A stretch of DNA of 64,000 nucleotides from Salarias fasciatus. Lineage: Eukaryota. The stretch is from contig NC_043762.1 of NCBI RefSeq assembly GCF_902148845.1, forward strand, positions 29,026,760-29,090,759, written 5' to 3'. A program made the translations under genes and the position numbers. Position 1 is the first letter of the stretch. The number at the start of each line of letters is the position of its first letter. The notes beneath the pieces are model-generated. The model was not told the DNA's origin. It did no database searches and saw only the letters and a program-made list of their open reading frames with translations. Below, piece after piece: positions 11,828-55,259 of the stretch.

Positions 11828-11927
11828 CAAGAAGCCGATGACAACAGTTCCGTCTTCTTCACCGAGCAGCCACACGCCACTGTCGTCATCACGGATTATA
11901 GCATGGATACGAACAGTGACGTGCCAG
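11828..11927 (-). CDS. tep1: TEP1 exon
   Basis: Donor TTCTTG|gtgagtt. The peptide is (S)WHVTVRIHAIIRDDDSGVWLLGEEDGTVVIGFL, resembling human SSFLCASSDGILWNLAK. The acceptor choice (ggaag|CTGGCAC) is uncertain. Confidence 0.55.
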
Positions 11928-12141
11928 CTTCCAATGAGAAGCACACACAGAGGGGATCAGATTCTCCTTAATGGTGCAAACTCTTGAATGTATGAACAAA
12001 ATTCAGTAACTGCTGAGTATTTAGTCAAAATGGATTCCAATATAACAAATGAACAAAGAGGATTTACTGACGATTTGCTGCATTCAACAATCTTTCAAAC
12101 AGTGGTTTTCCCTGAATTTTCACTTGTTTCACAGAAATGTT

Positions 12142-12152
<11 letters not shown>

Positions 12153-12201
<49 letters not shown>
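12153..12201. repeat. (CA)n microsatellite, about 24 units
   Basis: A perfect cacaca run is directly visible. Confidence 0.95.
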
Positions 12202-12203
<2 letters not shown>

Positions 12204-12274
12204 CATCTGTTTCAAAAGCTAAAAGGTTGTGATTAGGTTACAATATATGAAACATACGGATATAAACTCACTTT

Positions 12275-12414
12275 GTGATCACACTTTCCCACATATTGCT
12301 CATGTCAAGTGAGACTTCGAATATCCTTCCATAGCAGGACACCCCCAGCAGGGCTGAGCAGTAGAAGAGGTGCTGCACTTCCTCTTTCACTTTGTAGGAG
12401 GTCGCCTTCACCAG
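12275..12414 (-). CDS. tep1: Probable TEP1 exon in the C-terminal low-conservation region
   Basis: Acceptor gttccttgcag|CCTGGTG and donor ACAAAG|gtgagttta. The peptide is LVKATSYKVKEEVQHLFYCSALLGVSCYGRIFEVSLDMSNMWESVITK. Its position and splice signals fit TEP1, but the human alignment is weak. Confidence 0.45.
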
Positions 12415-12489
12415 GCTGCAAGGAACAAACACAGAACAAAGAACAAAGAGACCAACTTCACACAGACGCCCAGAACGCAAGATGCTGCA

Positions 12490-13030
12490 CCGATCCATGT
12501 GTCAAGCTCACGCTCCATCCTCCCCCCAGTTATGAACAAGACCCTGAGATACTTGAACCCCTCCACTTGGGACAGGGTCTCTCTACCGACCAGGAGAGGG
12601 AAAACAAATCCTGACCATGGCCTTGGATTTGGAGGTGCTGATCATCATCTCTGTCGCTTCAAGGGAAGAAAACTGCATCGTTCCTCCCGAGGTTCAACTA
12701 CCGGTCGATTCTTTCCCTCCAGTACCCTGGAATAGACTTTCCCTGGGAGGCTGAGGAGTGTGATCCCCCTAGTGTTGGCAGGCACTCTCCAGTCCCCTTT
12801 AAAAAAGGGGGAACCACCACCCAGTCTGCCAGTCCAGAGGCACTGTCCCTGACCACCATGTGATGTTACAGAGCCGCGTCGACCAAGACAGTCCCTGAAC
12901 ATCCGGAGACTGAAGGTACTCGGGGTGAACTCAGGATTGAAATGATCCTCAAAGTATTTCTTCTACCATCCAATAATACTCCCAGGTGAGGTCAGCGGCT
13001 CCCCACCTTCACTGTCAACAGCAGTGGTGG
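12490..13030 (-). mobile_element. LINE (Rex1/Babar-like) fragment
   Basis: It shares sequence with the LINE copies at 51560-51700 and 52200-52340 (cacgctccatcctcccccc ... gaacaagaccctgagatacttgaac ... ggctgaggagtgtgatccccct). Confidence 0.6.
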
Positions 13031-14160
13031 GGCAAGGGTCCTTGGGGGCTCCAAGCAAAAAAATTCATCGGGCCCCCCATCCGTGCACACCGAAAAAAAA
13101 AAATTCTTTGCTCTCGCAGTGCAGGACAGGTTCGGCTTGTTCACCCCCCATAGCGTTATTCAGCCAGGCTGGGCCAGGCATACATCCACACTAAAATATA
13201 TAGAAGTGAATTGCATAGCTTGCATGTGTAGACGCAGCTCCCAGACCCAACTTTGAAAAGCAATGATAACGGCGACATTTTTTTTTCTCGCGCTCTAAGA
13301 GTCTCGTGGTAACGCAGCACGTTACCGCCGTTAACGGCCCAGCTATAATATGTATACTGAAAAACTTAGAGAACCCTGAATCTCTTCTGTTAGACCCAGG
13401 GACCAACAGAAGTCCTTGAAAGCCCTGGCTTATCAATAATTATATGATACAATAAACCTTGCGGCTCGCCTGATTGACGCAGACAGCGCTGAAGGCTGAT
13501 AGGGCCGTGCGGGGCCCCCCCAAGGGGGTTTGCTACGTCGTTGTTTCATAATTGCATCATAAATGTCGATTGTTGTCGTTTCTGTGCAGTACATGTATTA
13601 GCACTTGGGGTACCCAGTCTCTCAGGGGCCTCCTTGCGGGGCCCCCTAAAAGCCGGGGCCCCAGGCAATTGCCTGGTTTGCCTGTTGGCACGCCCCGCCT
13701 CTGGTCAACAGTGTTGGTGGAGACCTGCTGTCCCCTCCTGTGGCACCGGACGGGTTGCCAGAATTTCTTTGAGACCAACCGGTAGTCCTTCATGGCCGAA
13801 GGCGCAGGGTCACAACCCTCTCGCTCACCGTGGGCAATGCCGAAGAAGTGGAGAGTCCAGCTCCTCCTGACGGGCTGGCTTCCAGAGCCCCGGCTGTGTG
13901 GACCTGAGCCTGACTCTATCTAGTCAGTACCTCTCAACCCTCTTCACAATCCCAGGCTCCTTCTTCCTCAACAAGGTGGCAGTCCATGTTCCAAGAGCCA
14001 GTCTCTGTGTCCAGGGATCAGGTCGCCGTGCACCCTGCTGTGAGCTGCCACTCAATCCACACTAGACCCGGCCAGTAGGCGGTTCCTCCAGCGGGTGATG
14101 AGTCCACTGGCGGTTGGGCCCACGTCGTCTGTTCTGGCTGAGCCTGGCTGCACTCGCATT

Positions 14161-14456
14161 CAAACCTCAGCCCGGGGTGTAGCTCAGGGGTGTAGCTCGG
14201 GGGTGTAGCTCCGGGGTGTAGCTCCGTGGTGTAGCTCCGGGGTGTAGCTCCGGGGTGTAGCTCGGGGGTGTAGCTCCGGGGTGTAGCTCGGGGGTGTAGC
14301 TCCGGGGTGTAGCTCCGGGGTGTAGCTCGGGGGTGTAGCTCGGGGGTGTAGCTCCGGGGTGTAGCTCGGGGGTGTAGCTCAGGGGTGTAGCTCCAGGGTG
14401 TAGCTCCAGGGTGTAGCTCCGGGGTGTAGCTCGGGGGTGTAGCTCCGGGGTGTAGC
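14161..14456. repeat. Minisatellite: 14-bp unit ggggtgtagctc(c/g)g, about 21 tandem copies, embedded in an unclassified repeat (13700-14680)
   Basis: The tandem array is directly visible, with unit variants differing at one position (ccgg/cggg/cagg). ORF 14018-14470(-), with its repeated TPELHPRATPRSY, is the array read in one frame. Confidence 0.9.
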
Positions 14457-15472
14457 CCTGGCTGCGCCATGCCAGGTGACGCCGCGGTCCTTGTTATGAT
14501 TCTGCTTGTAGGGCCTTTTGAGCTGCTCAGTCTGGCCCGTCACCCAGGGGCCGTGACAGACCCTACCAGGGGAATAAAGCCCCAGCTCCTGGGCTCATGC
14601 AGGCACTCAAACTCCCCGACCACATTAAAGTGGCACTTCAGGGGGGAGGGCTGCAATTACACTCAGAGCAAATAGACCTATTTTGATTATATGTGTAACC
14701 AGTTGATGCAGCAAGTTTGTGACTGAATGCTTGAACAGAAATCAAGAAGGTTCACTGACACGAGTTATATCAGCAAAAAGCTCCAGTTTGAAAATTTTTT
14801 TTTTTTTTAGATTTTGGATTATTTTTGGATAAAATGGAGGTAACGAGGAGTAAACCTGGTAAATCTTGTCAGGAGAAAGAACAGGAATAAAAGGGTCATT
14901 TCAGGAATGTAACTTTCTCTTCCACTGGTCGTTGCTGTGACAGTATGGGACTACAGGAGAGCAATGTTTGAACGTCACAAAGAAAGGTGGAAATAATGTA
15001 GAAGTGCCTCAATGTTAATTTTAGACTTTACGAGAAACAAACAACAAAAACTACAGATGTGGGTTCAACAATCTGACTAAAATGGACAATATGGAAACTG
15101 CAAATAGTATTTGGTGAAAATAAACAATTATTTAGCCTTCTATCACCACCTGAACAAAAAGAAAGGCTCTGATAACTAAAGCTATCATCATTTTTAGGTA
15201 AAGAAAGGTTTTAGAGTAAGATTAGATTGACTACAAAGAAGAGAGATATCAGAACTCTGATATTTACCTGGCCTTGTTGTGTTCTTCATTCCACATCATC
15301 TCCCAAACATCAACCTGCAGCGATGTCTTGTTGCTAATAGCTAGCTGGTCTTTGGGCATGAAGCAGGCTGCTGTGATGGGGGAGTCGGACACCTGACACA
15401 AACATTCATCTGGTTCACTTCAACATGAAAACATATGTCTGCATCGATAACCTTTCTCGTGGAAATACTCAC

Positions 15473-18234: not shown

Positions 18235-20272
18235 TTCCAAGTTATAATCCAAAACAAAGGTTCTTTTCCAAAGACCAGGGAGGTATTTTGTTATTTACCT
18301 GACGGTTTCGGCAGCTGTCAGCTGTCTTCTTCAGAGTGTCACGTGATGTTGTGGTGACGTATCTTGTCAGCTGATTTATACAGGTTTTGGCGCTATTCTC
18401 CCACTAGTGGAAGCGGGAGAACAGCACCAACTGCAGTCCGACTTCTTGAGTACAGCATCCCAGGTGTGTGAAAGCAAAAAGGCCCCCTCATCCCGGTTCA
18501 CTGTCTCGGGGGCACGTTTCCGAATTTCAATAGCCTCTTTTATCCAGCGTCGGTGTTTGTTCTCTTCTGTCCCGATGACTCTCGCTCCGTCCCAATCCAT
18601 AATGTGATTTTCTCTTTTGCAATGATCTGAAATGGCCGACTTGAGTTGTTCCTGTTCAGCTTTTCTTTTTGTTGCTCGTGTTTGTGCTGTTGTGGTTTCG
18701 TTCTCACATTCTGTCTTGTGTTCCTTTTTTCGCGTGCTGAAAGTCCTCCCTGTCTCTCCAGTGTATGTTTTGTTAGATAACTTACATGGGATTTCGTAGA
18801 TAATATTGCATTTTTGTTCCGGTTGTATTCTGTCTTTGGGGTGTACAAGTATTTGTCTGAGTTTTCTATATGGTTTTACTGGAGTATTGATGTTTTGTTT
18901 TTTTCATTGCTCTTTGTACTTTCTCTGTGATGCCCCTGATGTATGGGAGGGTTACCATCGTGCTGCTCTCCATCCGCTCTCTCTTGTTTTCTTTTGGCTT
19001 GGGTCTCTTTTTCTTCTCCTGAACCTGCCTTCTTCCTTTTTGTATTGCCCAATTGGGGTATCCGCATTGTTTAAGCGCTTGAATGATGTGTTGTTCTTCT
19101 TTTCTCCTGTCCTCCTCCTCTGTGATTATATTGGCCCGGTCAAAAAGTGTTCTTATTACAGAGAGTTTGTGCGCTGTGGGGTGTTCAGATGTCCATAAGA
19201 GATATTGATCGGTGTGCGTTGGTTTCCTGTAAATGTTTATTTTAATGCTGCCGTCCTCTTTGTGGGAAATGTTGATATCCAGAAAATTTATTGCATGGTT
19301 CTCTTCTTCTTCATGTGTGAACTGTATTTTTCTGGTGGTGTCGATTGTGTTTAGATGTTTTGTTAATTCTTGTGTGAGTCCTTTTTTTATTTTCTCCAAG
19401 ATGTCATCCACATACCTCTTCCACATAGTAAGTCCACATTGAGCTGGTGCAGTGTTGATGGCCTTCTCCTCCAGATCCTCCATGAAAAAAACACTCATAA
19501 TGGCTGAGAGGGGGTCCCCCATGGCGAAACCCTCTTTTTGTCTGTAAATGTTTTGTTTATACTGGAAATATGTTGACGTGGAGACAAAATGTAAAAGCCG
19601 GGTTATGTCCTCTACTGTCAAATTGGTGCGTTTCTTGAGTGTTTTGTCCGTCCTGAGTCTGTTTTCCACTATGTGCAGGGTAACATGTATGGGGGTCTTT
19701 GTGAAGAGGGATATGGCATCATGCGAGATTAGGATTTCATCTGGGTGTACTTGGATGTTCTTAAGTTCTTCTGCCAGTTCTCTTGAGTTTTTGCAATGTT
19801 GTTTCGATTGTCCAAGTAATGGTTTAATTAAATCCACCAGTGCTTTTGACAAGTTGTAGGTAACTGATCCTATGCTGTCAACTATGGGCCTCAGGGGGGC
19901 ATCCTTTTTGTGGATTTTAGGTGTGCCATATATACGTGGAGTGATATAGAAGAGAACAAACACCGACGCTGGATAAAAGAGGCTATTGAAATTCGGAAAC
20001 GTGCCCCCGAGACAGTGAACCGGGATGAGGGGGCCTTTTTGCTTTCACACACCTGGGATGCTGTACTCAAGAAGTCGGACTGCAGATGGCGCTGTTCTCC
20101 CGCTTCCACTAGTGGGAGAATAGCGCCAAAACCTGTATAAATCAGCTGACAAGATACGTCACCACAACATCACGTGACACTCTGAAGAAGACAGCTGACA
20201 GCTGCCGAAACCGTCAGGTAAATAACAAAATACCTCCCTGGTCTTTGGAAAAGAACCTTTGTTTTGGAATAT
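18235..20272 (-). mobile_element. Penelope-like element (PLE): RT plus a GIY-YIG endonuclease remnant, with about 370-bp inverted terminal copies. It fills almost all of one TEP1 intron
   Basis: ORF 18866-19963(-) carries Penelope RT motifs (YGTPKIHKKDAPLRPIVDSIGSVTYNLSKALVDLIKPLL ... FAMGDPLSAI ... RYVDDIL). ORFs 18376-18600(-) and 19910-20140(+) carry the GIY-YIG tail (KHRRWIKEAIEIRKRAPETVNRDEGAFLLSHTWD). These sit in inverted copies (18290-18425 is the reverse complement of 20090-20230). Confidence 0.8.
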
Positions 20273-27884: not shown

Positions 27885-28930
27885 CAACCATTTTCTACCA
27901 CTTATCCACGACCGGGTCGCGTGGGCAGCAGTCTCAGTAGAGATGCCCAGACTTTCTGTCCCCAGACTCTTCCTCCAGCTCTTCGGGGAGGATCCCAAGG
28001 CATTCCCAGGCCAGCCGAGAGGCATCGTCTTTCCAGAGTGTCCTTGGTCTTCCCCGGGACCTCCTCCCGGGGGGACATGCCCGGAACACCTCTCCAGGTA
28101 GGGATCCAGGAGGTAACCTTAACAGATCCTGAGCCTCCTCAGCTGGCTCCTCTCGATGTGGAGGAGTAGTGGCTCTACTCTGAGCTCCTCACCCTATCTC
28201 TCAGAGAACACCCAGGCCCCCTACGAAGGAAGCTCATTTTAGCCGCTTGTCTCCGGGATCTTGTGCTTTTGGTCATGACCCAAGGCTCATGAGCATAGGT
28301 GAGGGTGGGGACGTAGATTGACTGGTAAACTGAGAGCTTCGCCTTTCAGCTCAGCTTCTTCTAGACCGCGAGATACGTAAACTCCTCAACTTGGGCCAGG
28401 GTCTCTCCACCCACCTGGAGAGGGCAGAGCACGTTCTTCTGGTCAAGGACCATGGCCTCGGACTTGGTGGTGCTGATCCTCATCCCTGTCACTTCACACT
28501 CGACTGTAAACTGCCCCAGTGCATGCTGCATCTCCAGTTTTAATGAAGCTAACAGGACATCATCGGCAAAAAGCAAAGAAGAAATCCCGAGGTCCCCAAA
28601 CCGGACCCCCTTCGGCCGCTGGCTGCACCTAGAAATTCTGTCCATTAAGATTATGAACAGAACCAGTGACAAAGGGCAGCCCTGCTGGAGTCCAACATGC
28701 ACCGTGAACAGGTCCGACTTACTGCCGGCAATGCGGACCAGACTCCTGCTTTGGTCATACAGAATGGTCCCTGGACTCAGTACTCCCAGAGCACCCCGCC
28801 AAAAGACATCATGAGGGGCGCAGTACAATGCCTTCTCCAAATCCACAAAACACAAGTGAACTGGTTAGAGGGTATAGAGCTGGTCCAGTGTTCACGACCA
28901 GGACGAAAACCACATTGTTCCTCCTGAATC
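27885..28930 (-). mobile_element. LINE (Rex1/Babar-like) 3' fragment with an RT domain
   Basis: ORF 28361-28855(-) carries RT motifs (CFVDLEKA ... GLQQGCPLSLVLFIILMD ... LLFADDVLLAS). The same family occurs at 51040-52345. Confidence 0.8.
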
Positions 28931-31559: not shown

Positions 31560-34500
31560 CCACCCAGGAGAAACCTTTTTTGTTACGAAACTGACCAGAG
31601 AAAGAAGCCGGACTGACCAACACGGTAACGGACCCCAGCCTGCCCCCGACCAACGAGTACAGATCGACCTTCGTCATAGGACCCGTGTTACCACATGGAA
31701 TGTCCAGACACTCCTTCGCCCCGGAGCTGCCACCCTGCTGTCCCGAGAGCTCTGCCGCTACAACATCTCCCTGGCAGGGCTCTGTGAGGTCAGATGGCAA
31801 GGTAATGGTGAAACAACAGCAGGCGACCATTGCTACATCTGGAGTGGCCCCGAGAGCCGGACCGGCCTTTATGGTGTGGCTCTTGCCATTCCAAAAGCCC
31901 TCCAGAGGTCCCTCATCAGCTGGACACCTCTAAGCGACAGACTACTGTCTGCTCGCTTCCTCCACCACCAAGGCAAGATGACAGTGGTTGTCGCCCATGC
32001 CCCCACGAATGTCGCTGATGAGGATGTGAAGGACGTGTTCTTCGACCAACTCCACCAGGCTGTCAACCAAGCTCCACCACACTACGTCACCATCATTCTC
32101 ATTGACGCCAGCGCCACTCTATCCAGCAGCGATCGGTCCCCCGGCTCACCTGTCGGCACCACCCTCATCGATAGGAAAACAAATGACAATGGCAACCGCC
32201 TCCTCCTCCTCTGCCACCATAACAGCCTCTGCATTGCTGACACCTGGTTTCCTCGGAAACAAATCCATCACTGGACGTGGTACGGCCCAGATGGCAGAAC
32301 CAGGAAGGCGCTGGACCACATCCTCATTTCTCGATGCTGGAATTCATTTGTCACCAACTGCCAGGTGCACAGAGGAGCACAGCTTGGCAACACAGACCAT
32401 CGTCTGCTGGTGGACCAGCTTAAGCTAAAGCTCCGAGCCAACCAGCACCAGACCCTGCCTCGCCCCGACTCCTCCCGACTCAATGACCCCGTCATTGCCA
32501 CAGACTTCAGCTGCTCCATTCGCCGCACTCTTAATGCCCTGGCTCCCGACAAAGTGACAGATTGGGTGACCTTCAAGGAAAGTGTCCTCCAGTCTGCTCA
32601 CAATGTCCTCGGACACTCACGACCATCCCCGAGAAAGCCCTGGACATCAGAGAGGACACTAAACATCATTGACCAGTGGCGTGAGGCCCGGCTCCGAGGC
32701 GACTGAACCGCTTGCGCAATGTGGCCATCACTGAGGATAGGGAGAGGTTCTGGGAAACAGAAGCCCGACAGCTTGACTCCATGGCCAACAACAATAACTA
32801 GAGCCGTGTAATCAGTCTACTGCGCCAAGCCCATGGCGGCCCACACATAAAGACAGCCTTGGTAAAAGATTCTGACGGTAATCTCGTTACAACTGAAGCC
32901 AACTGCCTCGAGCACTGGAAGGCACACTTTAGCCTCCTCCTGCAGCACAGCACCATCCCGGCTGATCCCACCCTCCTAGAGGCTGCCAACGCTGCCCCCA
33001 GTAGCGACGCCTGCTGCACAGACCCTATAACACCCGGGGAAGTGAGAGCTGCCCTGAAGAAACTGAACATCAGGAAAGCCCCTGGCATCTGTGCCATCAC
33101 CAGTGAGATGCTCAAAGCCGGAGCTGACGGTATGGTGGAGTGGCTAACCCACCTCTTTTTGGCTGGCTCTCGGAGGTGGCGGACGCTTTTTCTATCGCTC
33201 CCTGTTTGCTCCTCCCTCCCTATTGTCTCTGCTTGCTGCTCTCTGTCTCGTCTGTTTTACTGGAGGAATCACTTGACTTGGTTTTTCGAACTAACCAAAT
33301 ATCAACCATGGAATTGATCAGCTGGTCTCTCTATGCAATTGATATGAGTTTTTCAACAAAGAGCACAGGAGCGGGGATCCTGCCTGTCCGGACGGGACTC
33401 AGCATGCTGGGTATGTGATGAACGCCCGGGAGAAGTGGAGGGGTATCACATGCCTGCCACCCCTGTCCGTCAAGGTCATTGTGGATGATTACATTTTTGG
33501 ATTTATTATGATCGGCCTGCTGCTGATTGGCTTGTGCTGCGACCTGATCCTCTGGAGGATTAAGAAGACCGCCACCACAAAAGACGTCCACGGGAGGACG
33601 GTCTTTTCAAATCAATGGGCAAAAGCTGAGACTGACCGTTTGTGCGAACTCTTTCGAAAGGTGGACAATTTGGGTTATGGACGATTGAGACGCAAGTTGG
33701 ATGTCACCAGCTTCTGTCTGAAATGTGGAGATACCGAGCAAAAGAAGGTCAAATGGTTCCTTCTACACTAAAACAAGATAACTTCTGATTATGTCTGGCG
33801 CCCCTGGAAGACTAAACATCTCCCTGAAAATTCAAGGACAAGATTGATTGCTCGCTCTACCTTCCCTCTCTCTCTCTCCCAGCTGCAACCCAAGTTCACC
33901 TTTGGACTGCTTTGTTCAAGGCCCGGCAACGACCATCCGAGTTGGAGCGCAAAGGTGAGGCGGGCCAAACCACACACACACGTACACGGATTGATGAACT
34001 GAAATGCCACATACACGCCACACACACTCCCTCCCCAACTCTCAATGTCTCCACCACAGCTCTCTGCTGACGACTAGTGGTGATGACGTGTTGCCCTGAT
34101 GCTATTGACGTGTTGCGCTGATGCTATAGCTGCGACCGCTGATCCGCTGGTCTGATAGCAACTTGTGTCATGTGTCTTGCTGTATATGTGCACAGGTTGG
34201 CTTTTTTTTAGTCTCTCACTTCTAATCACGACTCCCTTTTGGAACCGTGATCTGAACTGATGTATCTTTTTTTTAACCACCACCCTACCCCCCTCCCCCA
34301 ATTTCTGTCTGAGTTTCTTTAACTCTGTTTCTTTTTCAAGACGGAGCACCGTAATTGGCTGCCTGGGCGTCTTTAAAACCCAAGTAATTTCGTTGTAACT
34401 TGTAACTTCGCTAACTTGTTGCGATGACAATAAAGGCTATTCTGATTCTATTTAATCAGGTGTGGGAAACAGAGCAGCTGCCCACCGACTGGACCAGAGG

Positions 34501-36215
34501 GGTCATCCTGCCCTTCTGGAAACGTAAGGGTGATCGGCTTGTCTGCGGAAACCATAGAGGCCTGCTCTCCATCCCTGGCAATGTCTTCACCAGGATCTTG
34601 CTTAACCGTGCCCTTCCAGGGATCAGAAGCCGCCGCCATCCCCAGCAGGCTGGCTTTATGCCCAATCGCTCCACAATCGACCACATCTCTGCCGCACGTC
34701 TGCTGATAGAGAAGATCCGTGAATTCCGTAAAGACCGCCATCTGTATATCGGATTCATTCATCTGAAGGCCGCCTTCGACACCATCTGCCACTCCTCACT
34801 GTGGAACATCTTCCAAACCCTTGGAGCACCACCCAAGATCATTGCTCTGTTCGAGCTGCTCTACAGCAACGCAGAGAGCTGTGTCCGTATTAACGGTACT
34901 GACTCCAGCTGGTTTACCATCTCCAGTGGCGTTCTCCAGGGCTGTGTGGCTCCTGATCTTTTCAACTGCATCATCGACCATCTGATGTCCCAGGTCTGCG
35001 AGCGCATCCCCAGAGTGTCCTTCAGCAACTACCACCTGACTGACCTGGAATACGCTGACGATACCATCCTGCTCAGCACAACCTACAGTCAGCTGACAGA
35101 CGCTCTGGGCTTTATAGTGAGGAGGCAGCACAGCTCAGCCTCCAAGTGAGCTGGACTAAAACCAAGTTCATGTATGTCGGTGACGGACCAGATCCACCTC
35201 CCATGCAAATTGGGAGCGACATCGAAGAGCCTGTCAAGAACTTCATGTACCTGAGGTCCATGGTGACAGACAGCGGGGACCTAAAACCAGAGATTGATCG
35301 CAGACGAGCCCTGGCAGCATCTGGTCTGCAGTCCCTCTGGAAACCACGGTGGCGGCACCAGACCATCTCACCAAGACGGAGCTCCAGATTTACAAATGAG
35401 CCGTACTCTCCCTACTGCTTTATGGCTCAGAAACGTGGCCCCTGAACGACACTCTGGCCGCCAGAATCAATGGCTTCGATAGCAGGGCTCTGAGAACCAT
35501 GGAGAACATCAGGTGGGCAAGACACTTCACCCACCTTGCTTAAGTATAAAAGTAGTGTGAGAGGGAATGGTTGGTGGTGGTCGGAGGGGCCGATGGCGCA
35601 GATTGGCAGCCTCGCTTCCATCAGTCTACCCCAGGGCAGCTGTGACTACAATAGTAGCTTACCACCACCCAGTATGAAGAGAATGAATAATGCAATGTAA
35701 AGCGTCTTTGAGTGTCCAATAAAGCGCTATATAAAACCAATGCATTATCATTATTATAGGTGGCCCCAGCAAGTTTCCAATGAAGTGCTCAGAGCCCGCA
35801 CAGGCCAGCCCCGAGCATCTTCCCCGGTCTCACAACACCACACTCGCTGACTCGGCCATGTCCCCCGTCTACCCCCAGAACATCCGATGTGAGCCATTCT
35901 CCAGTTTGACCCGAAGGCCGCAGGCTGGAGACGACCTCGATGGAAAGCCCGCGCCCGATGGCTCGACGTCATTGTGGCCAACCTCCAACAACACGGAGTT
36001 GCTGTGGAGGATGCAGAGCAGCTGGCACAAGGCTGCCAGCACTGGAAAAATCTGGTTCATCTGGTAGGCTCAACGCACCAGGACGGGATACCCTGACCCT
36101 CGCTGGAGCACTAAGTAAGTAATTAGTAATGTAACATCCTGAATGTCCCCCCATTCTGAATCAATGTTTGTCACTCAAAATAAATAAATAAATAAATAAA
36201 TAAAACTACTGCAGA
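31560..36215 (+). mobile_element. Non-LTR retrotransposon (LINE) with APE endonuclease and RT. It is interrupted by about 1.2 kb of foreign sequence (33180-34420) and a roughly 230-bp insert (35530-35757), and ends in an (AAAT)n tail
   Basis: The APE domain lies in ORF 31876-32706(+) (GTVTWNVQTL ... LCEVRW ... VVVAHAPTNVADEDVKDVFFDQL ... NGNRLLLLCHHNSLCIADTWFP ... TRKALDHILISRCW). The RT domain is ORF 34424-35149(+) (AGFMPNRSTIDHI ... HLKAAFDTI ... LEYADDTILLS), with the C-terminal motif RWPQQVSNEVLRARTGQ. The tail is aaataaataaataaataaataaa at 36181. Confidence 0.85.
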
Positions 36216-38439: not shown

Positions 38440-39700
38440 CCCTTCAGCTCAAAGGGCTGGACTCCCCACTTCTCTGGTGTTGCCTATGGTCATAGGCGGA
38501 CTGGTCTGAGGTTGCTTATAGGCCCACAGCTCAGCTGCCATGTGTTGGAGTTCACCCCAGTGAACGAGAGGGTCACACTTCTGCGCCTTTGAGTCAGGGA
38601 TAGGTGTCTCGAGCTCACTGATACACATTGTCGACAGTAAGTCGCACCTGGTCCCAGGGCATGTGGACTCAGGGCTGACCTTTGTCACCGGTGCTGTCCA
38701 TAATTTTCATGGAATGAATTTCTAGGTGCAGCCAGGGACCGGAGGCGGTCCGTTTCAGTAAGCACAGGATTTCATCTCTGCTTTTTGCAGATGATGCTGT
38801 CCTGGACATACAGCATGCACTGGGATCCGTGGTTCTTGTGCTGGACCGTCCAACGGACTGTACTCAACATAGTCCTAAGCTTTACTTCTTATTGTCTCAT
38901 GCTAGCTGTTGCCAAAGCTGTCCGTCCCTGGGAGAGGGATCCCTCCATACTGCGGTTCTCCCCAAGATTTCTTCTTTTCCCACTGGGTTTTTGGAGTTTT
39001 TTTTTTTTTGCCGGATGTGAGGGTCTAAGGCGGTGGTTGCTTCGTTTTGTCTCGTTACTGTGAATTTGACATATTAACATTATGCTTATTCACTGTTTTT
39101 ATTTTTACCAACCAATGTAACATCTTGAAGCCTCTGAGGCAACTGTTGTTGTGATACTGGGCTATACAAAAAAATAAAATTGAAATTGAAATAAATTGAG
39201 TGGTTTGCAGCTGAGTGTGATGCGACGGGGATGGCATCTCCAAATCCAAGGCCATGGTCCTCGACCGAAAGAAGGTGGTCTGCCCTCTCCAGGTCAGCAG
39301 AGAGATCCTGCCTTTAGTGGAGGAGTTCGAGAATCTTGGGGTTTTGTTCATGAGTGGGTGACGGATGGAGTGTGACATTGACAGGCGGATTGGTGCAGCG
39401 GCTGCAGTGAGCCAGTTGCTGTATCGGTCCTGAGCCAAAAGGACAAGCTCTTGATTTACCAGTCAATCATCGCTGCTGCCCTCATGGATGGTCATAAGCT
39501 TTGGATCCTGACCGAAAAGACAAGATCCGGATACAAGCGGCTGAAATGAGCTTCCTTCGTGGTGTGACTTGTCACTCCCTCAGAGATAGGGTGAGGACTC
39601 CTCCACATTGAGAGGAGCCAACTTGGGTGGTTTGGACTTCTGTTTGAGATGCCTCCTGGACGCCTCCCTTGGGAGGTGTTCTCACCTCACTTTCTGAGTT
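38440..39700 (+). mobile_element. LINE fragment (RT portion, plus orientation) with internal rearrangement. It lies immediately next to TEP1 exon 39785-40076
   Basis: The RT YxDD box reads ISLLFADDAVL at about 38765-38800 (+). Further RT-like sequence lies at 39230-39600. The read-through ORF 39572-40123(-) simply continues past the exon donor into this repeat. Confidence 0.6.
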
Positions 39701-39784
39701 AAACTGACAGAATTTTAGATTTGGGTAGCAGTGGGGTTCGCACACAGCTAAACTTAATACTGCTCTAATTATTTTAAGTCTTAC

Positions 39785-40076
39785 CCAGCTGTACTGCGGC
39801 AGATCGGGAAGGGCAGGCCGATCGGGCACCTGGCCGTACCTCTCCCCCAGGATTCCCACCAGGATCTGGTTGCGGCACACCTCCGACAGGCACAGCTCGG
39901 TGGCCCGCTCCGACTCCTCCTCCGTCACACCCCAGCGCAGTTCCACCTCCTGCAGGTAAAGGCAGTGTGGTGCGGCACGGCGGCGAAGCTCTGGAAAGAC
40001 GCTCTGCACCAAGACGTCTCGCTCAGAGTGCATGTCCCTGAAGGTGGAGGAGATGAACACCCGCACACCTTTCCAC
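39785..40076 (-). CDS. tep1: TEP1 exon (start of NACHT ATPase domain)
   Basis: Acceptor ttggtttccag|GTGGAAAGG and donor CAGCTGG|gtaagac. The peptide is [97 protein letters not shown]. It matches human [96 protein letters not shown]. Confidence 0.95.
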
Positions 40077-40252
40077 CTGGAAACCAACAAATGAGCCCAG
40101 GTTACACAACCTGTGACCCACAATTAAGAAAAGTGTATCAATACATTGATGATGATCACTACTGCTGCACATGTGAGTCCTGAAGTCAGCCAGCTAACCA
40201 ACAAGATGGACACATCCTAAGTTTTGTATATCTTCTTTGAAGAAAGTATTAC

Positions 40253-41740: not shown

Positions 41741-41894
41741 CTTCATTTGCTTGACCACAGTTCTCACGTTATCCAAAAGGACATCAGACTTCAGCTTGAT
41801 TTCTTCACAGTGACCGTGATCCACTAAGCAAAACTGACAATCTTCTGCACTGCTCCTGATCAACAGTGCAACCAAAGCAGCCACCTCCTCCCCC
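41741..41894 (-). CDS. tep1: TEP1 exon (TROVE)
   Basis: Acceptor ccctcacag|GGGGAGG and donor AATGAAG|gtcaggc. The peptide is GEEVAALVALLIRSSAEDCQFCLVDHGHCEEIKLKSDVLLDNVRTVVKQMK, matching human LNYALLLIGMMITRAEQVDVVLCGGDTLKTAVLKAEEGILKTAIKLQAQVQ. Confidence 0.85.
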
Positions 41895-41979
41895 TGTGAG
41901 GGTATAAGCATGAGGCAAGTTGAATTATTTTGTTGGTTTCGCTCTCATGAGACAAAAGAGAAGCAGCACAATCACTCAC

Positions 41980-42247
41980 CGAAGGCCCGAGCTTCTCAGT
42001 CTTTTCAACATTTTTCCGTCTGTCATCGTTATCGTCCTCATCATCCTTTTTGTCTTTTTGCTCTGGGTCTGGAGGGAGGCAGAAGTCTTGTTTTTTAAGC
42101 CAGCTCAGAAAACTATTTACTCTTGCGTAGAGAAGGATGACTGTCCGTCCAGGGAGCGGGGGCAGGTTGTAACGGCAGGAGATCTGAACCGCCGTCTCCA
42201 GAGCTTTGCGGTAACGGTCCAGCAGAGCCACGGTGAACACCTTCTCC
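41980..42247 (-). CDS. tep1: TEP1 exon (TROVE), which includes a D/K-rich insert
   Basis: Acceptor ctactcgcag|GGAGAAGG and donor GGCCTTCG|gtgagtg. The peptide is EKVFTVALLDRYRKALETAVQISCRYNLPPLPGRTVILLYARVNSFLSWLKKQDFCLPPDPEQKDKKDDEDDNDDRRKNVEKTEKLGPS, matching human EMLNRYRQALETAVNLSVKHSLPLLPGRTVLVYLTDANADRLCPKSNPQGPP. Confidence 0.9.
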
Positions 42248-42757
42248 CTGCGAGTAGACATATGGAGAGACCTCAAAAACCTTCGTCTAAAATGTATCAG
42301 TTATAAAACATACATTAGCCAATGAAACTGGCAGCTGCCTCTCAGGGTTGAATAACTCTTAGATCTTCGTGCCTCCAAGCTGTAATCGAAAATATGTAGA
42401 ATATTATCAAAGCTAGAAGATACAATCTCCCTTCCAACTTTAAAATGGGAAGCACTTTAATGGGGGCACTGGCTCATGCCGGGTGGGGGCCAGTTGTCCT
42501 AGGTAAGGTCATGGCCCTCTGACTGAGTGGGAGGGGTCGGCTCGTGGGCTCTTGGGGCCCTGGACCCTCTGCTCTGCCCACCCTGGGCATCTGGTGAACG
42601 GCAGGCTTGGTTACTTTCATGCCGAGGCAGGAAAGACCTCTTAGGCATTTAACCAGCTGCTCATTTTCCCACTGCAAATTAATATTAGTGCTGCTTTCAG
42701 GAAAAAAAAAAATAAAAAAAAAAAAAACATAAAATATTTTTAAAAAAGTCCACACAC

Positions 42758-50557: not shown

Positions 50558-50695
50558 CTTTCCTTTGAGCTTGTTCCGGTTGTGTTTACAGCGATGTTTG
50601 CGTGTATTGTATTTAGCCAGCTGATACTCGCTGAATTGCTTGAACTTGTCCACCATTGCCTTCTTCAGGCACGACGGCAGGGAGCGCTTGAAGCA
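50558..50695 (-). CDS. tep1: TEP1 exon
   Basis: Acceptor ctgatttcag|TGCTTC and donor GGAAAG|gtacaaag. The peptide is CFKRSLPSCLKKAMVDKFKQFSEYQLAKYNTRKHRCKHNRNKLKGK, matching human KLVPLPACLRTAMTDKFAQFDEYQLAKYNPRKHRAKRHPRRP. Confidence 0.9.
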
Positions 50696-50777
50696 CTGAA
50701 ATCAGACAATGACATGCTTTATACAAACTCAAAGCACCAGGATAGAAATCCACCAGGAGACATTCCCTGAAACTCAC

Positions 50778-50942
50778 CGCTGTGTAGATTCTGACCACTT
50801 CCAGCCAGTCAGAGGGCAGCTGTACGGCAGCACAGAAATATCTGCGAACATGCGACTTGGTTTCGTCGAGACTGGCAGCCAGAGCCAATAGGAAGTTTGC
50901 AGTGATGCGAATGTTTAACCTCTGTCGAGTGTACAGCGCCAC
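50778..50942 (-). CDS. tep1: TEP1 exon
   Basis: Acceptor tgctatccag|GTGGCG and donor CACAGCG|gtgagtttc. The peptide is VALYTRQRLNIRITANFLLALAASLDETKSHVRRYFCAAVQLPSDWLEVVRIYTA, matching human SLYARQQLNVRNVANNILAIAAFLPACRPHLRRYFCAIVQLPSDWIQVAELYQS. Confidence 0.9.
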
Positions 50943-51039
50943 CTGGATAGCAGGCAGAGAGAAAACACACCCAGGTGGAGTCATTAAAATGAGTCCATCG
51001 TGAATTCTGAACCAAACACAATGTTTGATGTTACTACAA

Positions 51040-52345
51040 CTGTAATTCATCCATCCAGCCATCCATCTTCAACTGCTTATCCTCAACCGGGTCACAGGGG
51101 CAGCATTCTTGGCAGGGGTGCCCACACTTCCCTGTCACTTCCCTGTCCCCAGACACTTGCTCCTGCTGTTCTGGGAGGATCCCGAGGCATTCCCAGGCCA
51201 GCCAAGAGACATAGTCTCTCCAGCGTGTCCTGGGTCTTCCCTGGGGCCTCCTCCCAGCAAGACATGTCCGAGCAACCTCAGCTGGCTCCTCTCAACGTAG
51301 AGGAGTAGACGCTCTACTCCAAACTCCTCCCTTGTGACTGAGCTCCTGACCCTATCTCTCAATGAGAGCCCAACCACTCTGTGGAGGAAGCTCATTTCAG
51401 CCGCTTGTATCTGGGATCTTGCCCTTTAAGTCATGACCTCATGACCATAGGTGAGGGTACGAGTGAAGATTGACCGTTAAAATGAGAACTTCGCTTTTCT
51501 GCTCAGCTTCTTTACCAAAACGGACCGATACAACAATCACATCACTGCAGACACTTCACCGACCCACCACTCAAATCTCACGCTCCACCTGACCCCCACT
51601 CGTGAACAAGACCCTGAGATGCTTAAACTCCTTGACTTGGGCCAGGATTTCCCCACCGACCTGGAGAAGGCAAACTACCTTCTTCCAGTCGAGGAACATG
51701 GCCTCGGGTTTTGAGGTGATGATCCTCATCCCCATCGCTTCACACTCACCTGCAAACCGTCCCAGTGCATGCTGCAGGCCCAGGTTCAATGAAGTCACCA
51801 GGACAAGCTCATCTGAAAAATCAGAGAAGAAATCCTGTGGTTCCCAAGCCGGGCCCCCTCCGGTCACTGGCTATATCTAGAAATCCAGTCTCTAAAAATT
51901 ATGAACAAGACCGGTGACAAAGGGCAGCCCTGCCAGTGTCCGGGAACAGGTCCAATTCACTGTCGGAAATGCAGACCAGACTCCTACTTGGGTCATATAG
52001 AGACTGGACAGCCCTTAACAAGGGTCCCTGGACTCCATACTCCCAGAGCACCCCCCACAAGACATCACAAGAGATGCAGTAAAATGCCTTCTCCAAATCC
52101 ACAAAACACATGTAGACTGGTTGGACGAACTCCAACGAACCCTTGAGCACCCGACGGATGGTGTAGAGCTGTTCCAGTCTTTCATGACCAGGATTAAAAC
52201 CACATTGTTCCTTCTGGATCCGTGGTTCGACGATCGGTCGAATCATCCTCTACCCTACCCTGAAATAGACTTTCCCGGGAAGGCTGAGGAGTGTGATCCC
52301 CCTTTAGTTGGAGCACACCCTCTGATCCCCCTTTTTAAACGGGGG
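51040..52345 (-). mobile_element. LINE (Rex1/Babar-like) fragment with RT, same family as 27885-28930
   Basis: Minus-strand ORFs 51571-51867 and 51899-52246 give RT motifs (MCFVDLEKAFYC ... LQHALGRFAGECEAMGMRI). The fragment is collinear with the 27885-28930 copy. Confidence 0.8.
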
Positions 52346-53142: not shown

Positions 53143-53418
53143 ATCTCGACACCGGGCTGTCATGGAGGAGAGGCGTGAGCGGACCATGATGACATATTGG
53201 TGAAACGAATGAGTTTTTGGACGATTAAAGCCGTTTTAGGAGCGGCGTTACCGATACCCCATATGCTAGACCTATATGGATGTGGGCCGCTCCATTTTGG
53301 ATCTAAATTTCTCCTGAAGCACTGTTTGGATCAGAAAAGCCTTCTGGGTGAGTATATTGTTGTACTTCATTCTATAAACAACGTGAAAACTGTTTAAACC
53401 GAACTTATCCTTTAACAG

Positions 53419-54610
53419 TAGGGCTGCCACGATTAGTCGATTAATCACGATTATGTCGACTATTAAAATCATCGACGACTAATTTAATAGTCGACGCGTC
53501 GGGGTTTTTTTTTTTTTTTTAATGTTTGTTTTTGTCTCGAAACTGCTGCGGTACCTTCCACTGCTGCGTCTGCCTCGCTGTATTTGACACACATGCGCAG
53601 TCGTGTCAGCCGCGACAACACCAGACTGGTGTCATGGCTACCCGGCAGCAGCGGAGCTCCAAAGTGTGGGAGCATTACAAGAAAACGTCAGAGAAAAGTG
53701 TGCAATGCAGTATCTGCCTTCCACGGCAGCACAACTGCGATGCATGAGCAGCTGAAACGGAAGCACGTCGTGGCTCGTGACAAAGATGAAGAGGGACCGT
53801 CGTCTCGGTAAGCTAATAATATTAGCATAGAGGGCTAACTTTCTGTTTACTCATAGCTGTCAACGTTAACATTAGCGGTGACGACATGATTTATTAGCTG
53901 CCTTTAGCACACATTTCATGTTTTCTGTAACGTTCTAACAGTGATGTGTTTTAATAAGAAGTGATGCCAGGCTAATATTTTCTAACGTTACGTTTCAGAG
54001 CTTCACCCCATCGGAGCGGATTTTCTCCGCAGCAGAACATCTGCTCCAAAAAGAAACCAAGTCTGTCTCCCAACACATGTAGAAATGCTGACTTTCCTGA
54101 ACAAGAGCCGTGTGTAGTTTGGGATTATGTAGAGTGAGGGTGTAATAAAGTTGTATACAGCTGAGCACTGAACACAAAATGCACTTTTGTTTTATTTGAG
54201 TCAGTGAGATGAAAACTTAAATAATTCCGTAGTTACAGGTGCCTGCCTCATTGTTGCTCTGCTTGATGCCAAACACAAATTAAGGAATAAAAAATGAACA
54301 AAGGATTTATTTTTGTGTTGTTTAGGCAAGTGCCTTTTCCGTATTTTACTCAAGTATTTGCACTTTATGGTACACAGTAATATTTCAATAAAGGTTTAAT
54401 GAACTATCATCTGAATTGTCTTTATATTTATTTAGTATATACCTTAAACACTTAAAGCTGAAATATAATTACGGTTATATAAGAGCAGCTTCTTGGTGGT
54501 GCGATAAACTATGTTTTACATTTAATTTACATATGATGTGATTTGTCGACTAATCGAAAAAATAATTGGTGATTAGTCGACTACCAAAATAATCGTTTGT
54601 GGCAGCCCTA
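53419..54610 (+). mobile_element. hAT non-autonomous element (about 1.2 kb) with TIR tagggctgccacga and an 8-bp TSD tttaacag. It carries a BED zinc-finger mini-gene of 2 exons plus an AATAAA signal
   Basis: The left end reads c[tttaacag]tagggctgccacgattagtcg and the right end tcgtttgtggcagcccta[tttaacag]tgg. ORFs 53526-53747 and 53584-53811 encode a BED-like finger (SKVWEHYKK...VQCSIC ... HGSTTAMHEQLKRKH). A donor follows (PSSR|gtaagct), then an acceptor at about 54000 (tttcag|AGCTTCACC) reading ...ETKSVSQHM*, and aataaag at 54146. Confidence 0.75.
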
Positions 54611-55259
54611 TTTAACAGTGGAACAAAACGCAGTATTTATTCTGACAAACAACCCCCACCCCCCCCAACAGAAAACAAGTGACCAGTTGCTCGAGCGCTC
54701 CTCCCTACAAACTAAACAGAAAATGCTGCACAACACGGTAAGTCCATAAAATAAAAGTAAAAAAGGCTCCACAATGTCCTATAGTCTTTTGCCCAAAGTT
54801 CCATAAAGTTCAAAGCGCACGTCCCTTCAGGTGACCGACTGAGTGGCCAGCGGAAGTTAATTACTCATGCCCGGTACAATCCTCAGCCCTCTGGTCCCCG
54901 ATGCTACTCCTCTCCAGCCCGATGGCTCCGTGGCAAAGTATTTCATAATCTAGTGGATCCAAAGGCACAGGGTTATAATCCCTCTGGTGCAGAATCCCCC
55001 TGGCAAACACTCCACGGCCTCGCTCTTCCGGCAGGTGAGTTCTTCCACGACAGCATGTGACGTCACTACCCCCTTGCGCATGCGCTGCTTCCCCTAATAT
55101 CCCTGCTTCAGATACAAATATCCAGATATTGTCTTAGCATATGTTTTTTCAGACAAAATGTGCCCCTTGATTAAAAAAACCCTGTGACCCAAGTCTGACA
55201 TATTAAGATGACAGCACAGGAAAACATTTAATCATCCCTGCTGGGTGACACATGTAGGG

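Follow-up and report, generated by a model that had tools for sequence, protein, structure and literature searches.

A short fish hAT element is very probably a decaying internal-deletion derivative of a ZBED1-like transposon and carries a broken BED finger

The hAT element at positions 53419-54610 (1,192 bp) of the 64-kb window, by which we mean the whole stretch of DNA that was analysed, is very probably a decaying, non-autonomous, Ds-like internal-deletion derivative of a three-exon ZBED1-like hAT transposon of ~3 kb. This reading follows from sequence comparison, because both ends of the element align to the ends of a full-length relative and the remnants between them are collinear with exon 1, intron 1, and exon 3 of the parent gene. 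The window copy is not a DNA-binding mini-gene, because any transcript would encode only a 37-residue peptide with the CxxC half of a BED zinc finger. The initial annotation had called a non-autonomous hAT element carrying a spliced BED finger gene. The first part of that call stands, as the termini, exon 1, intron 1, and the 3′ coding remnant all align to a full-length fish hAT that is flanked by a different 8-bp target-site duplication (TSD).

Three relatives (L001, L002, and L003) were found by protein searches with the frame-repaired remnants, and their contigs were then aligned to the window. DNA identity between the window copy and its closest relatives is 72-90%, and the parent is known here from these relatives in other species. 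The full-length element, L003, is located in Astatotilapia calliptera (NC_039310.1, element 9752-12784, 3,033 bp) and has the same 12-bp terminal inverted repeat (TIR), asymmetric ends, TAGTCGAC repeats, and its own 8-bp TSD, TCGGTGAG. Its three exons (10001-10182, 10445-10706, and 11053-12456) splice to an open 615-aa protein with a full zf-BED domain (42.2 bits) and a Dimer_Tnp_hAT domain (78.7 bits); comparison of this protein with the Hermes transposase gives an E-value of ~1e-28, with significant alignment mainly over the C-terminal domain. RefSeq places two models at this locus, one a 163-aa ZBED1-like protein that uses the same intron-1 splice and the other of 427 aa. The RefSeq protein ‘zinc finger BED domain-containing protein 1-like’ (P0002) lies on the L003 element. 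L001, in which the TIR (TAGGACTGCCAC) differs from that of the window copy at one of 12 positions, lacks parent residues ~104-412 and has several frameshifts and an intact exon 1; judged from the alignment, it is a second, independent deletion derivative with different breakpoints. L002, a fragment of a contig, has exons 1 and 2 intact. Exon 1 in all three relatives matches zf-BED at 42-52 bits over profile positions 1-43, and its dN/dS between lineages is 0.05-0.13, a constraint that is as expected for autonomous transposases and not specific to a mini-gene. The features of the window copy, in order, are the following.

53411-53418, no strand: 5′ TSD, TTTAACAG (8 bp), with the identical 8-mer on the other side of the element
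53419-53430, plus strand: 5′ TIR, TAGGGCTGCCAC, 12 bp and perfect, the same as at the 5′ end of L003
53431-53500, plus strand: 5′ subterminal region, with TAGTCGA / GTCGAC repeats at 53434, 53455, 53472, and 53488
53634-53807, plus strand: remnant of transposase exon 1 (BED zinc finger), from alignment to L001, L002, and L003
53808-53998, plus strand: intron 1 of the parent transposase gene, kept in full, with donor GTAAGCTA and acceptor GTTTCAG
53999-54002, plus strand: deletion junction AGCT, at which exon 2, after its first bases, meets codon ~573 in exon 3
53999-54117, plus strand: remnant of transposase exon 3, last ~40 codons (SERIFS...VEMLTFLNK), aligned to L003 12333-12535 and L001 1585-1756
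54118-54537, plus strand: 3′ untranslated and internal non-coding region, with AATAAA at 54144, 54286, and 54387
54538-54598, plus strand: 3′ subterminal region, with GTCGACTA repeats at 54545 and 54576
54599-54610, minus strand: 3′ TIR, plus-strand letters GTGGCAGCCCTA, the reverse complement of TAGGGCTGCCAC
54611-54618, no strand: 3′ TSD, TTTAACAG (8 bp), an exact match to the 5′ copy

The 8-bp TSD described by the initial annotation was recovered exactly on both sides of the element, and its sequence fits nTnnnnAn, the target preference of Ac-type hATs. The inverted repeat is likewise present but shorter than the 16 bp first given: it is perfect over 12 bp, position 13 is a mismatch, and further in the likeness between the two ends is limited to the subterminal repeats. 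The TIR 12-mer has exactly two exact occurrences in the 64-kb window, which are the two ends of the element. The TAGTCGA and GTCGACTA motifs are clustered in the first ~80 and last ~70 nt of the element; all three TAGTCGA sites in the window fall in the two element ends, as do four of the 12 GTCGAC sites. These subterminal repeats are putative transposase binding sites. In the DNA alignments, the 5′ subterminal region has 90.6% identity to L003 9750-9834, and the 3′ end of the element has 81% identity to that of L003 over 231 nt. The element has a G+C content of 40% and a CpG observed/expected ratio of 1.02, compared with 0.55 for the window.

The defining features of the hAT superfamily and the BED pattern Cx2CxnHx3-5[H/C] have been described (PMC4890040). 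An 8-bp TSD, short TIRs, and subterminal repeats at both ends are all found in the window copy, together with homology to transposase in the form of remnants only. A host gene, in which the locus would be a domesticated ZBED-type exon or gene fragment instead of a transposon copy, has next to no probability in our estimate. The closest named protein is indeed annotated ‘zinc finger BED domain-containing protein 1-like’, but the element on which that annotation falls is bounded by TIRs and a TSD and also codes for the remainder of a hAT transposase, and in the window copy TIRs, a TSD, and subterminal repeats surround a disrupted ORF. The domesticated-ZBED interpretation was rejected on the TIRs, the TSD, and the broken ORF.

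Within exon 1, comparison with L001, L002, and L003 reveals that the window copy has lost 14 nt immediately past the TGC at 53715-53717, because of which the BED finger is split across two reading frames. The ATG frame begins at 53634 and ends at a TGA at 53745-53747, giving 37 codons (translation MATRQQRSSKVWEHYKKTSEKSVQCSICLPRQHNCDA), and it contains three stops ahead of the intron-1 donor. The His half of the finger, FHGSTTAMHEQLKRKHVVARDKDEEGPSSR, is in a frame other than the ATG frame, and a tblastn match to the finger is likewise divided over two frames. The single BED finger ORF described by the initial annotation was quoted as a peptide with an ellipsis, behind which there are two frames: SKVWEHYKKTSEKSVQCSICL sits in the ATG frame and HGSTTAMHEQLKRKH in a different one, and the frameshift between them was hidden. 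The third zinc ligand has also changed from His to Gln in the window copy (CAG at 53749-53751); this His is invariant in all of the relatives (xHLKRKH), and related fish copies read CxICKAE(F/L)A(F/Y)HGSTTAMHEHLKRKH.

The zf-BED profile search that the initial annotation had proposed as a check of its reading was carried out and yielded a half-profile match below the cut-off. Pfam zf-BED (PF02892) matches over profile positions 1-22 of 44 only; the 37-aa ORF scores 20.5 bits against a cut-off of 20.6, and frame-joined peptides score 16.2 or 13.2 bits, also below it. A disrupted ORF and a failed profile search, the two outcomes which that annotation had named as counting against it, are what this copy presents. 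Repair in silico raises the score to 30.5 bits when the 14 nt are restored and to 41.5 bits when the His is restored as well. The pattern Cx2CxnHx3-5[H/C] in a single frame and above the Pfam gathering cut-off, by which we defined a functional finger, is not found in the window copy.

Intron 1 is complete. The donor reads TCGTCTCG/GTAAGCT (the slash marks the exon boundary), with the GT at 53808-53809, and the acceptor reads GTTTCAG/AGCTTC, with the following exon beginning at 53999. The intron is collinear end to end with the introns of L001 (to 1030) and L002 (to 1112), and L003 carries the same donor, TCGTCTCG/GTAAGCTA, at which the RefSeq model P0002 is spliced. Intron 1 and the 5′ UTR of the window copy align poorly with L003; intron 1 aligns well with L001. 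The GT donor and downstream acceptor of the initial annotation are thus both present, conserved in L001, L002, and L003, and used by P0002, and these alignments identify them as the true splice sites of intron 1 in the parent transposase gene. Exon 1 in every copy has an in-frame TAA inside the donor (CGG/TAA or CTG/TAA), and retention of intron 1 would therefore give a BED-only peptide.

Past the acceptor, the window sequence continues at once with the SERIFS region, close to the exon-3 end (L003 ~12333, L001 1585). Approximately 1.9 kb is absent at this junction, including the entire catalytic core (parent residues ~62-572), and tblastn finds parent residues 1-66 and 569-607 alone in the window. 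An intact transposase ORF with a DDE / RNase-H-like core, which defines autonomy, is thus absent from the element. The junction sequence is GTTTCAG/AGCTTCACCCC. Exon 2 starts with TGCT in L001 and GACTGCT in L003, exon 3 of L001 at 1585 reads AGCTCCATCCCATCGGAG, and the window reads CAG/AGCTTCACCCCATCGGAG; the AGCT of the junction overlaps the GCT of the exon-2 start and the AGCT of exon 3. The junction microhomology, as judged from relatives of other species, is just 3-4 nt (GCT). The left breakpoint is situated 1-4 nt past the intron-1 acceptor, and it is by the accident of this position that a complete intron has been kept.

The exon-3 remnant corresponds to the C-terminal part of the hAT dimerisation domain and retains the ancestral stop, TAG at 54115-54117. 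A 2-nt deletion (~54035) and a 1-nt insertion (~54070) spread its reading over three frames (SFTPSERIFSAA, NICSKKKPSLSP, and HVEMLTFLNKSRV followed by the stop), and there is a 6-nt deletion in addition. Once its frame is repaired, the remnant matches Dimer_Tnp_hAT at 24.6 bits (cut-off 21.4) over profile positions 50-82 of 84. The second exon of 27 codons in the initial annotation has its origin here: the frame SFTPSERIFSAAEHLLQKETKSVSQHM and the stop that ends it do exist (53999-54082), but they are a frameshifted tail of the hAT dimerisation domain and no new exon. Read in that way, the 27 codons gave no Pfam match, and the frame is in phase with the ATG frame only, being out of phase with the frame of the His half of the finger.

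Downstream, an AATAAA said to follow the stop by about 100 bp is present at 54144, where the actual distance is 62 nt. This hexamer was rejected as a conserved poly(A) site, since the aligned position reads CCAAAG in L003 and AGTAAA in L001. Positions 54199-54381 have no L003 counterpart in the alignment. A scan of the whole window with Rfam gave no match, and an RNA-gene explanation was rejected on that result.

For this copy, then, the compact spliced BED mini-gene does not hold, given the finger split by the 14-nt deletion, the His-to-Gln change, and the ATG frame of 37 codons. Predicted spliced and unspliced mRNAs both encode the same 37-aa stub with the CxxC half of the finger, and the two-exon appearance is an artefact of reading across the frameshift. 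Restoring the 14 nt puts the end of exon 1 in phase 2, and the next exon is then read as ASPHRSGFSPQQNICSKKK..., a 46-residue tail outside the SERIFS frame. A KP-like repressor would be recognised by an open frame with an intact DNA-binding domain, in place of which the window copy has a 37-aa ORF and a disrupted finger. The suggestion that it acts as a repressor, or represents a domestication intermediate, finds no support in this copy, with its destroyed finger and its ORF of 37 aa.

A version of that suggestion can be framed for the family, in which the short element as first formed, or its siblings, would express a BED-only peptide that occupies the TAGTCGAC repeats and damps transposition, or that marks a step in domestication. 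With splicing, the product would be exon 1 (~62 aa) plus a short tail; with intron 1 retained, it would be just exon 1. We consider this improbable, by a wide measure. The intact exon 1 of the three relatives speaks for it, as does the retention in the window element of the promoter-proximal region and both intron-1 splice sites, and the TAA inside the donor of every copy helps slightly, through the BED-only peptide that intron retention would give. There is also precedent in the P-element KP, a short non-autonomous element that encodes a DNA-binding repressor (PMC7776569), and zinc-finger regions of hAT transposases are required for binding of the element ends (PMC4890040). On the other hand, the finger is destroyed and the ORF reduced to 37 aa in the one copy at hand; the spliced frame with 14 nt restored enters 46 out-of-frame residues and no conserved exon; the exon-1 dN/dS is what selection on autonomous transposases alone would give; and the short BED-only fish proteins that were found include none fused to the SERIFS remnant. 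By analogy, and with a probability that we would put slightly lower again, retention of intron 1 in full-length elements, or short derivatives before their decay, might yield in teleosts a ~62-aa BED-only repressor of the KP or 66-kDa type that competes for the TAGTCGAC repeats, with the window copy as a dead example.

The preferred reading, a deletion derivative of a ZBED1-like hAT, suggests the following history. A deletion of ~1.9 kb with 3-4 nt of microhomology would have removed the sequence between the first bases of exon 2 and codon ~573 in exon 3, taking out the whole RNase-H-like catalytic core, and abortive gap repair after excision would leave a junction of this kind. It is by abortive gap repair that the canonical non-autonomous forms of Ac, P, Tc1, and Mutator have been proposed to arise (PMC3814204). 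The TIRs, the TAGTCGAC repeats, the 5′ UTR, exon 1, intron 1, the last ~40 transposase codons, and the 3′ UTR would have been kept, and the repeats are putative cis sites through which a full-length transposase could mobilise the element in trans. Decay would then account for the 14-nt deletion in the finger, the His-to-Gln change, and the two frameshifts and 6-nt deletion in the C-terminal remnant. Our verdict is that the copy is decaying neutrally.

Whether the element moved in its short form bears on the alternative that the large deletion and the small lesions all arose at this locus from a full-length insertion, such that no 1.2-kb family exists. Abortive gap repair makes deletion derivatives at the donor locus itself (PMC3814204), and there is one copy of the element in the 64-kb window. 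Searches of 5.8 billion protein clusters yielded no ORF with the Gln or the frameshift of the window copy, and exact look-up of five element ORFs in a collection of 15 billion proteins found none; the host genome is probably outside both collections, so that little follows from absence there. The perfect TSD and TIRs and the CpG ratio of 1.02 against 0.55 suggest that the element inserted fairly recently, which fits a long history in situ with five indels less well. We regard an origin in situ as possible but unlikely. If it were correct and no 1.2-kb family existed, expression ‘from many MITE copies’, as the initial annotation put it, would be inapplicable.

Other searches for sibling copies were similarly constrained by the collections. 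A scan with the TIR and subterminal motifs returned 0 matches in metagenome, prokaryotic-genome, and viral contigs, collections that apparently hold no usable fish DNA for this family, and a scan with the conserved BED-exon motif returned 0 matches in the metagenome contigs, of which the same appears to be true. Protein searches gave just BED-exon ORFs of other fish hAT copies or families, from which the canonical finger could be defined. The short BED-only predicted fish proteins represent BED exons from various hAT copies, and a fusion of that exon to the SERIFS remnant occurs in none of them.

Elsewhere in the window, minus-strand ORFs match TROVE (50613-51062 and 41860-42276) and DUF4062 (39572-40123), and these indicate a TEP1-like gene. 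The element probably sits in an upstream intron of that gene, in antisense orientation to it. In annotation, we would mask the locus as a non-autonomous hAT (ZBED1-like, Ac-type) and call no gene there. Two cautions follow for similar loci, namely that an ellipsis in a quoted peptide can conceal a frameshift and that N- and C-terminal transposase remnants can look like a neat gene of two exons when a retained parental intron joins them. Significance beyond annotation is small, this being an ordinary element of a known type for which the transposon call was right; wider interest would attach just to regulation of fish hAT activity by BED-only products of intron retention or deletion derivatives, if that is true, and this copy is no evidence for it.

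Comparison with known systems places the element among transposon derivatives. The L003 protein shares with the transposases of Hermes, Tol2, and Tgf2 a BED finger, a catalytic core, and a C-terminal dimerisation domain, although the relationship is distant and the window copy retains no catalytic region. In hATs generally, there are subterminal repeats, and an N-terminal zinc finger serves to bind the ends (PMC4890040). The KP and 66-kDa repressors of the P element are alike in concept, in that a short element or an intron-retaining mRNA encodes an N-terminal zinc-coordinating DNA-binding domain without a catalytic part (PMC7776569). They belong, however, to another superfamily (THAP as opposed to BED), the KP ORF is 207 aa compared with 37 aa in the window copy, and the window finger is split by a frameshift and has lost a zinc ligand.

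The A. calliptera element is much closer, sharing the identical 12-bp TIR, asymmetric ends, TAGTCGAC repeats, exon-1 donor, and, at 72-91% DNA identity, a homologous BED exon, 3′ coding end, and 3′ terminus. It differs in being full length with an open 615-aa ORF, whereas ~1.9 kb is missing from the window copy, which carries frameshifts, and the two come from different species or subfamilies. The label MITE, which was applied initially, is loose for an element of 1,192 bp with exon 1, intron 1, and exon-3 remnants, given that MITEs are usually shorter than ~800 bp and without a coding remnant; ‘canonical deletion derivative’ is the better name under the distinction made in PMC3814204. The Ac/Ds-type derivatives show the same combination of traits: termini of an autonomous relative, an 8-bp TSD, a deleted catalytic core with both ends of the transposase gene kept, microhomology at the junction, and breakpoints that vary by copy (residues ~62-572 missing from the window copy, ~104-412 from L001). 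Nothing essential sets the window element apart from them, the difference being one of family, a teleost ZBED1-like hAT as against maize Ac.

A full-length hAT relative of the window element is present in Astatotilapia calliptera:

L003 9752-12784 (NC_039310.1, within 30281036-30301789, reversed): hAT element, 3,033 bp

This copy is flanked by an 8-bp target-site duplication (TCGGTGAG), is bounded by 12-bp terminal inverted repeats, and contains an open transposase reading frame of 615 aa in three exons. The element is apparently intact and possibly autonomous. It lies within a gene whose product contains ACBP and ECH domains. In RefSeq, the transposase is divided between two models, one of 163 aa ('ZBED1-like'), in which the intron-2 donor is read through, and another of 427 aa.

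Comparison of this element with the window element and two further fish copies (L001, a second deletion derivative, and L002, a fragment retaining exons 1 and 2) reveals a common arrangement at the exon-1 donor:

window 53806-53811: exon-1 donor
L001 ~812-817: exon-1 donor
L002 ~919-924: exon-1 donor
L003 10181-10186: exon-1 donor

Exon 1 ends in phase 2 in all four copies and, as a consequence, a TAA within the donor G|GTAAGC follows the BED exon directly and in frame in each. If left unspliced, a transcript would thus be translated into a ~61-63-aa BED-only peptide. The in-frame TAA may be a mere by-product of the donor consensus. A protein search also returned P0013, a 62-aa fish-type hAT BED exon (KSSKVWEHF...HGSTTAMIQHLKRKH). 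Its record, 'MAG: hypothetical protein [Plesiomonas sp.]', belongs to a 3.9-kb contig, and the most likely explanation is that DNA of a fish host was mis-binned into a bacterial metagenome-assembled genome.

The CpG observed/expected ratio is 1.02 in the window element (53419-54610) versus 0.55 in the whole window, a hint that the insertion is young or unmethylated, indels notwithstanding. The TCGA-containing subterminal repeats account for much of the ratio. Within the non-coding 3' portion of the element, ~180 bp (54199-54381) have no counterpart in the L003 element by alignment and no second copy within the 64-kb window, and could represent lineage-specific sequence or a small insertion.

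Other transposon remnants and repeats populate the window:

869-1725, 18866-19963, 28361-28855, 51899-52246, 56973-57784, minus: transposon remnants
31876-35149, plus: transposon remnant
869-1309, minus: Tc1-like DDE_3 fragment
18866-19963, minus: reverse-transcriptase (LINE-like) ORF
34424-35149, plus: reverse-transcriptase (LINE-like) ORF
56973-57350, minus: mariner-like C-terminal ORF
14172-14456: 13-bp tandem repeat CCGGGGTGTAGCT, ~22 copies, 93% match
10751-11543: low-complexity stretch, 30-bp imperfect tandem repeats

Further fragments lie next to the reverse-transcriptase ORFs. The mariner-like ORF was assigned by eye only and has no Pfam match at E<=0.001. The 13-bp repeat gives rise to a repetitive, artefactual ORF at 14018-14470. 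The low-complexity stretch contains long ORFs, Glu/Asp-rich on the minus strand and Pro/Ser-rich on the plus strand, and may represent either an acidic coding exon or simple sequence.

Three exon-like ORFs have matches to DUF4062 or TROVE:

39572-40123, minus: DUF4062
41860-42276, minus: TROVE
50613-51062, minus: TROVE

These domain matches point to a putative TEP1-like (telomerase-associated protein 1) host gene across much of the window. The hAT copy would lie in an intron of this gene, in antisense orientation.
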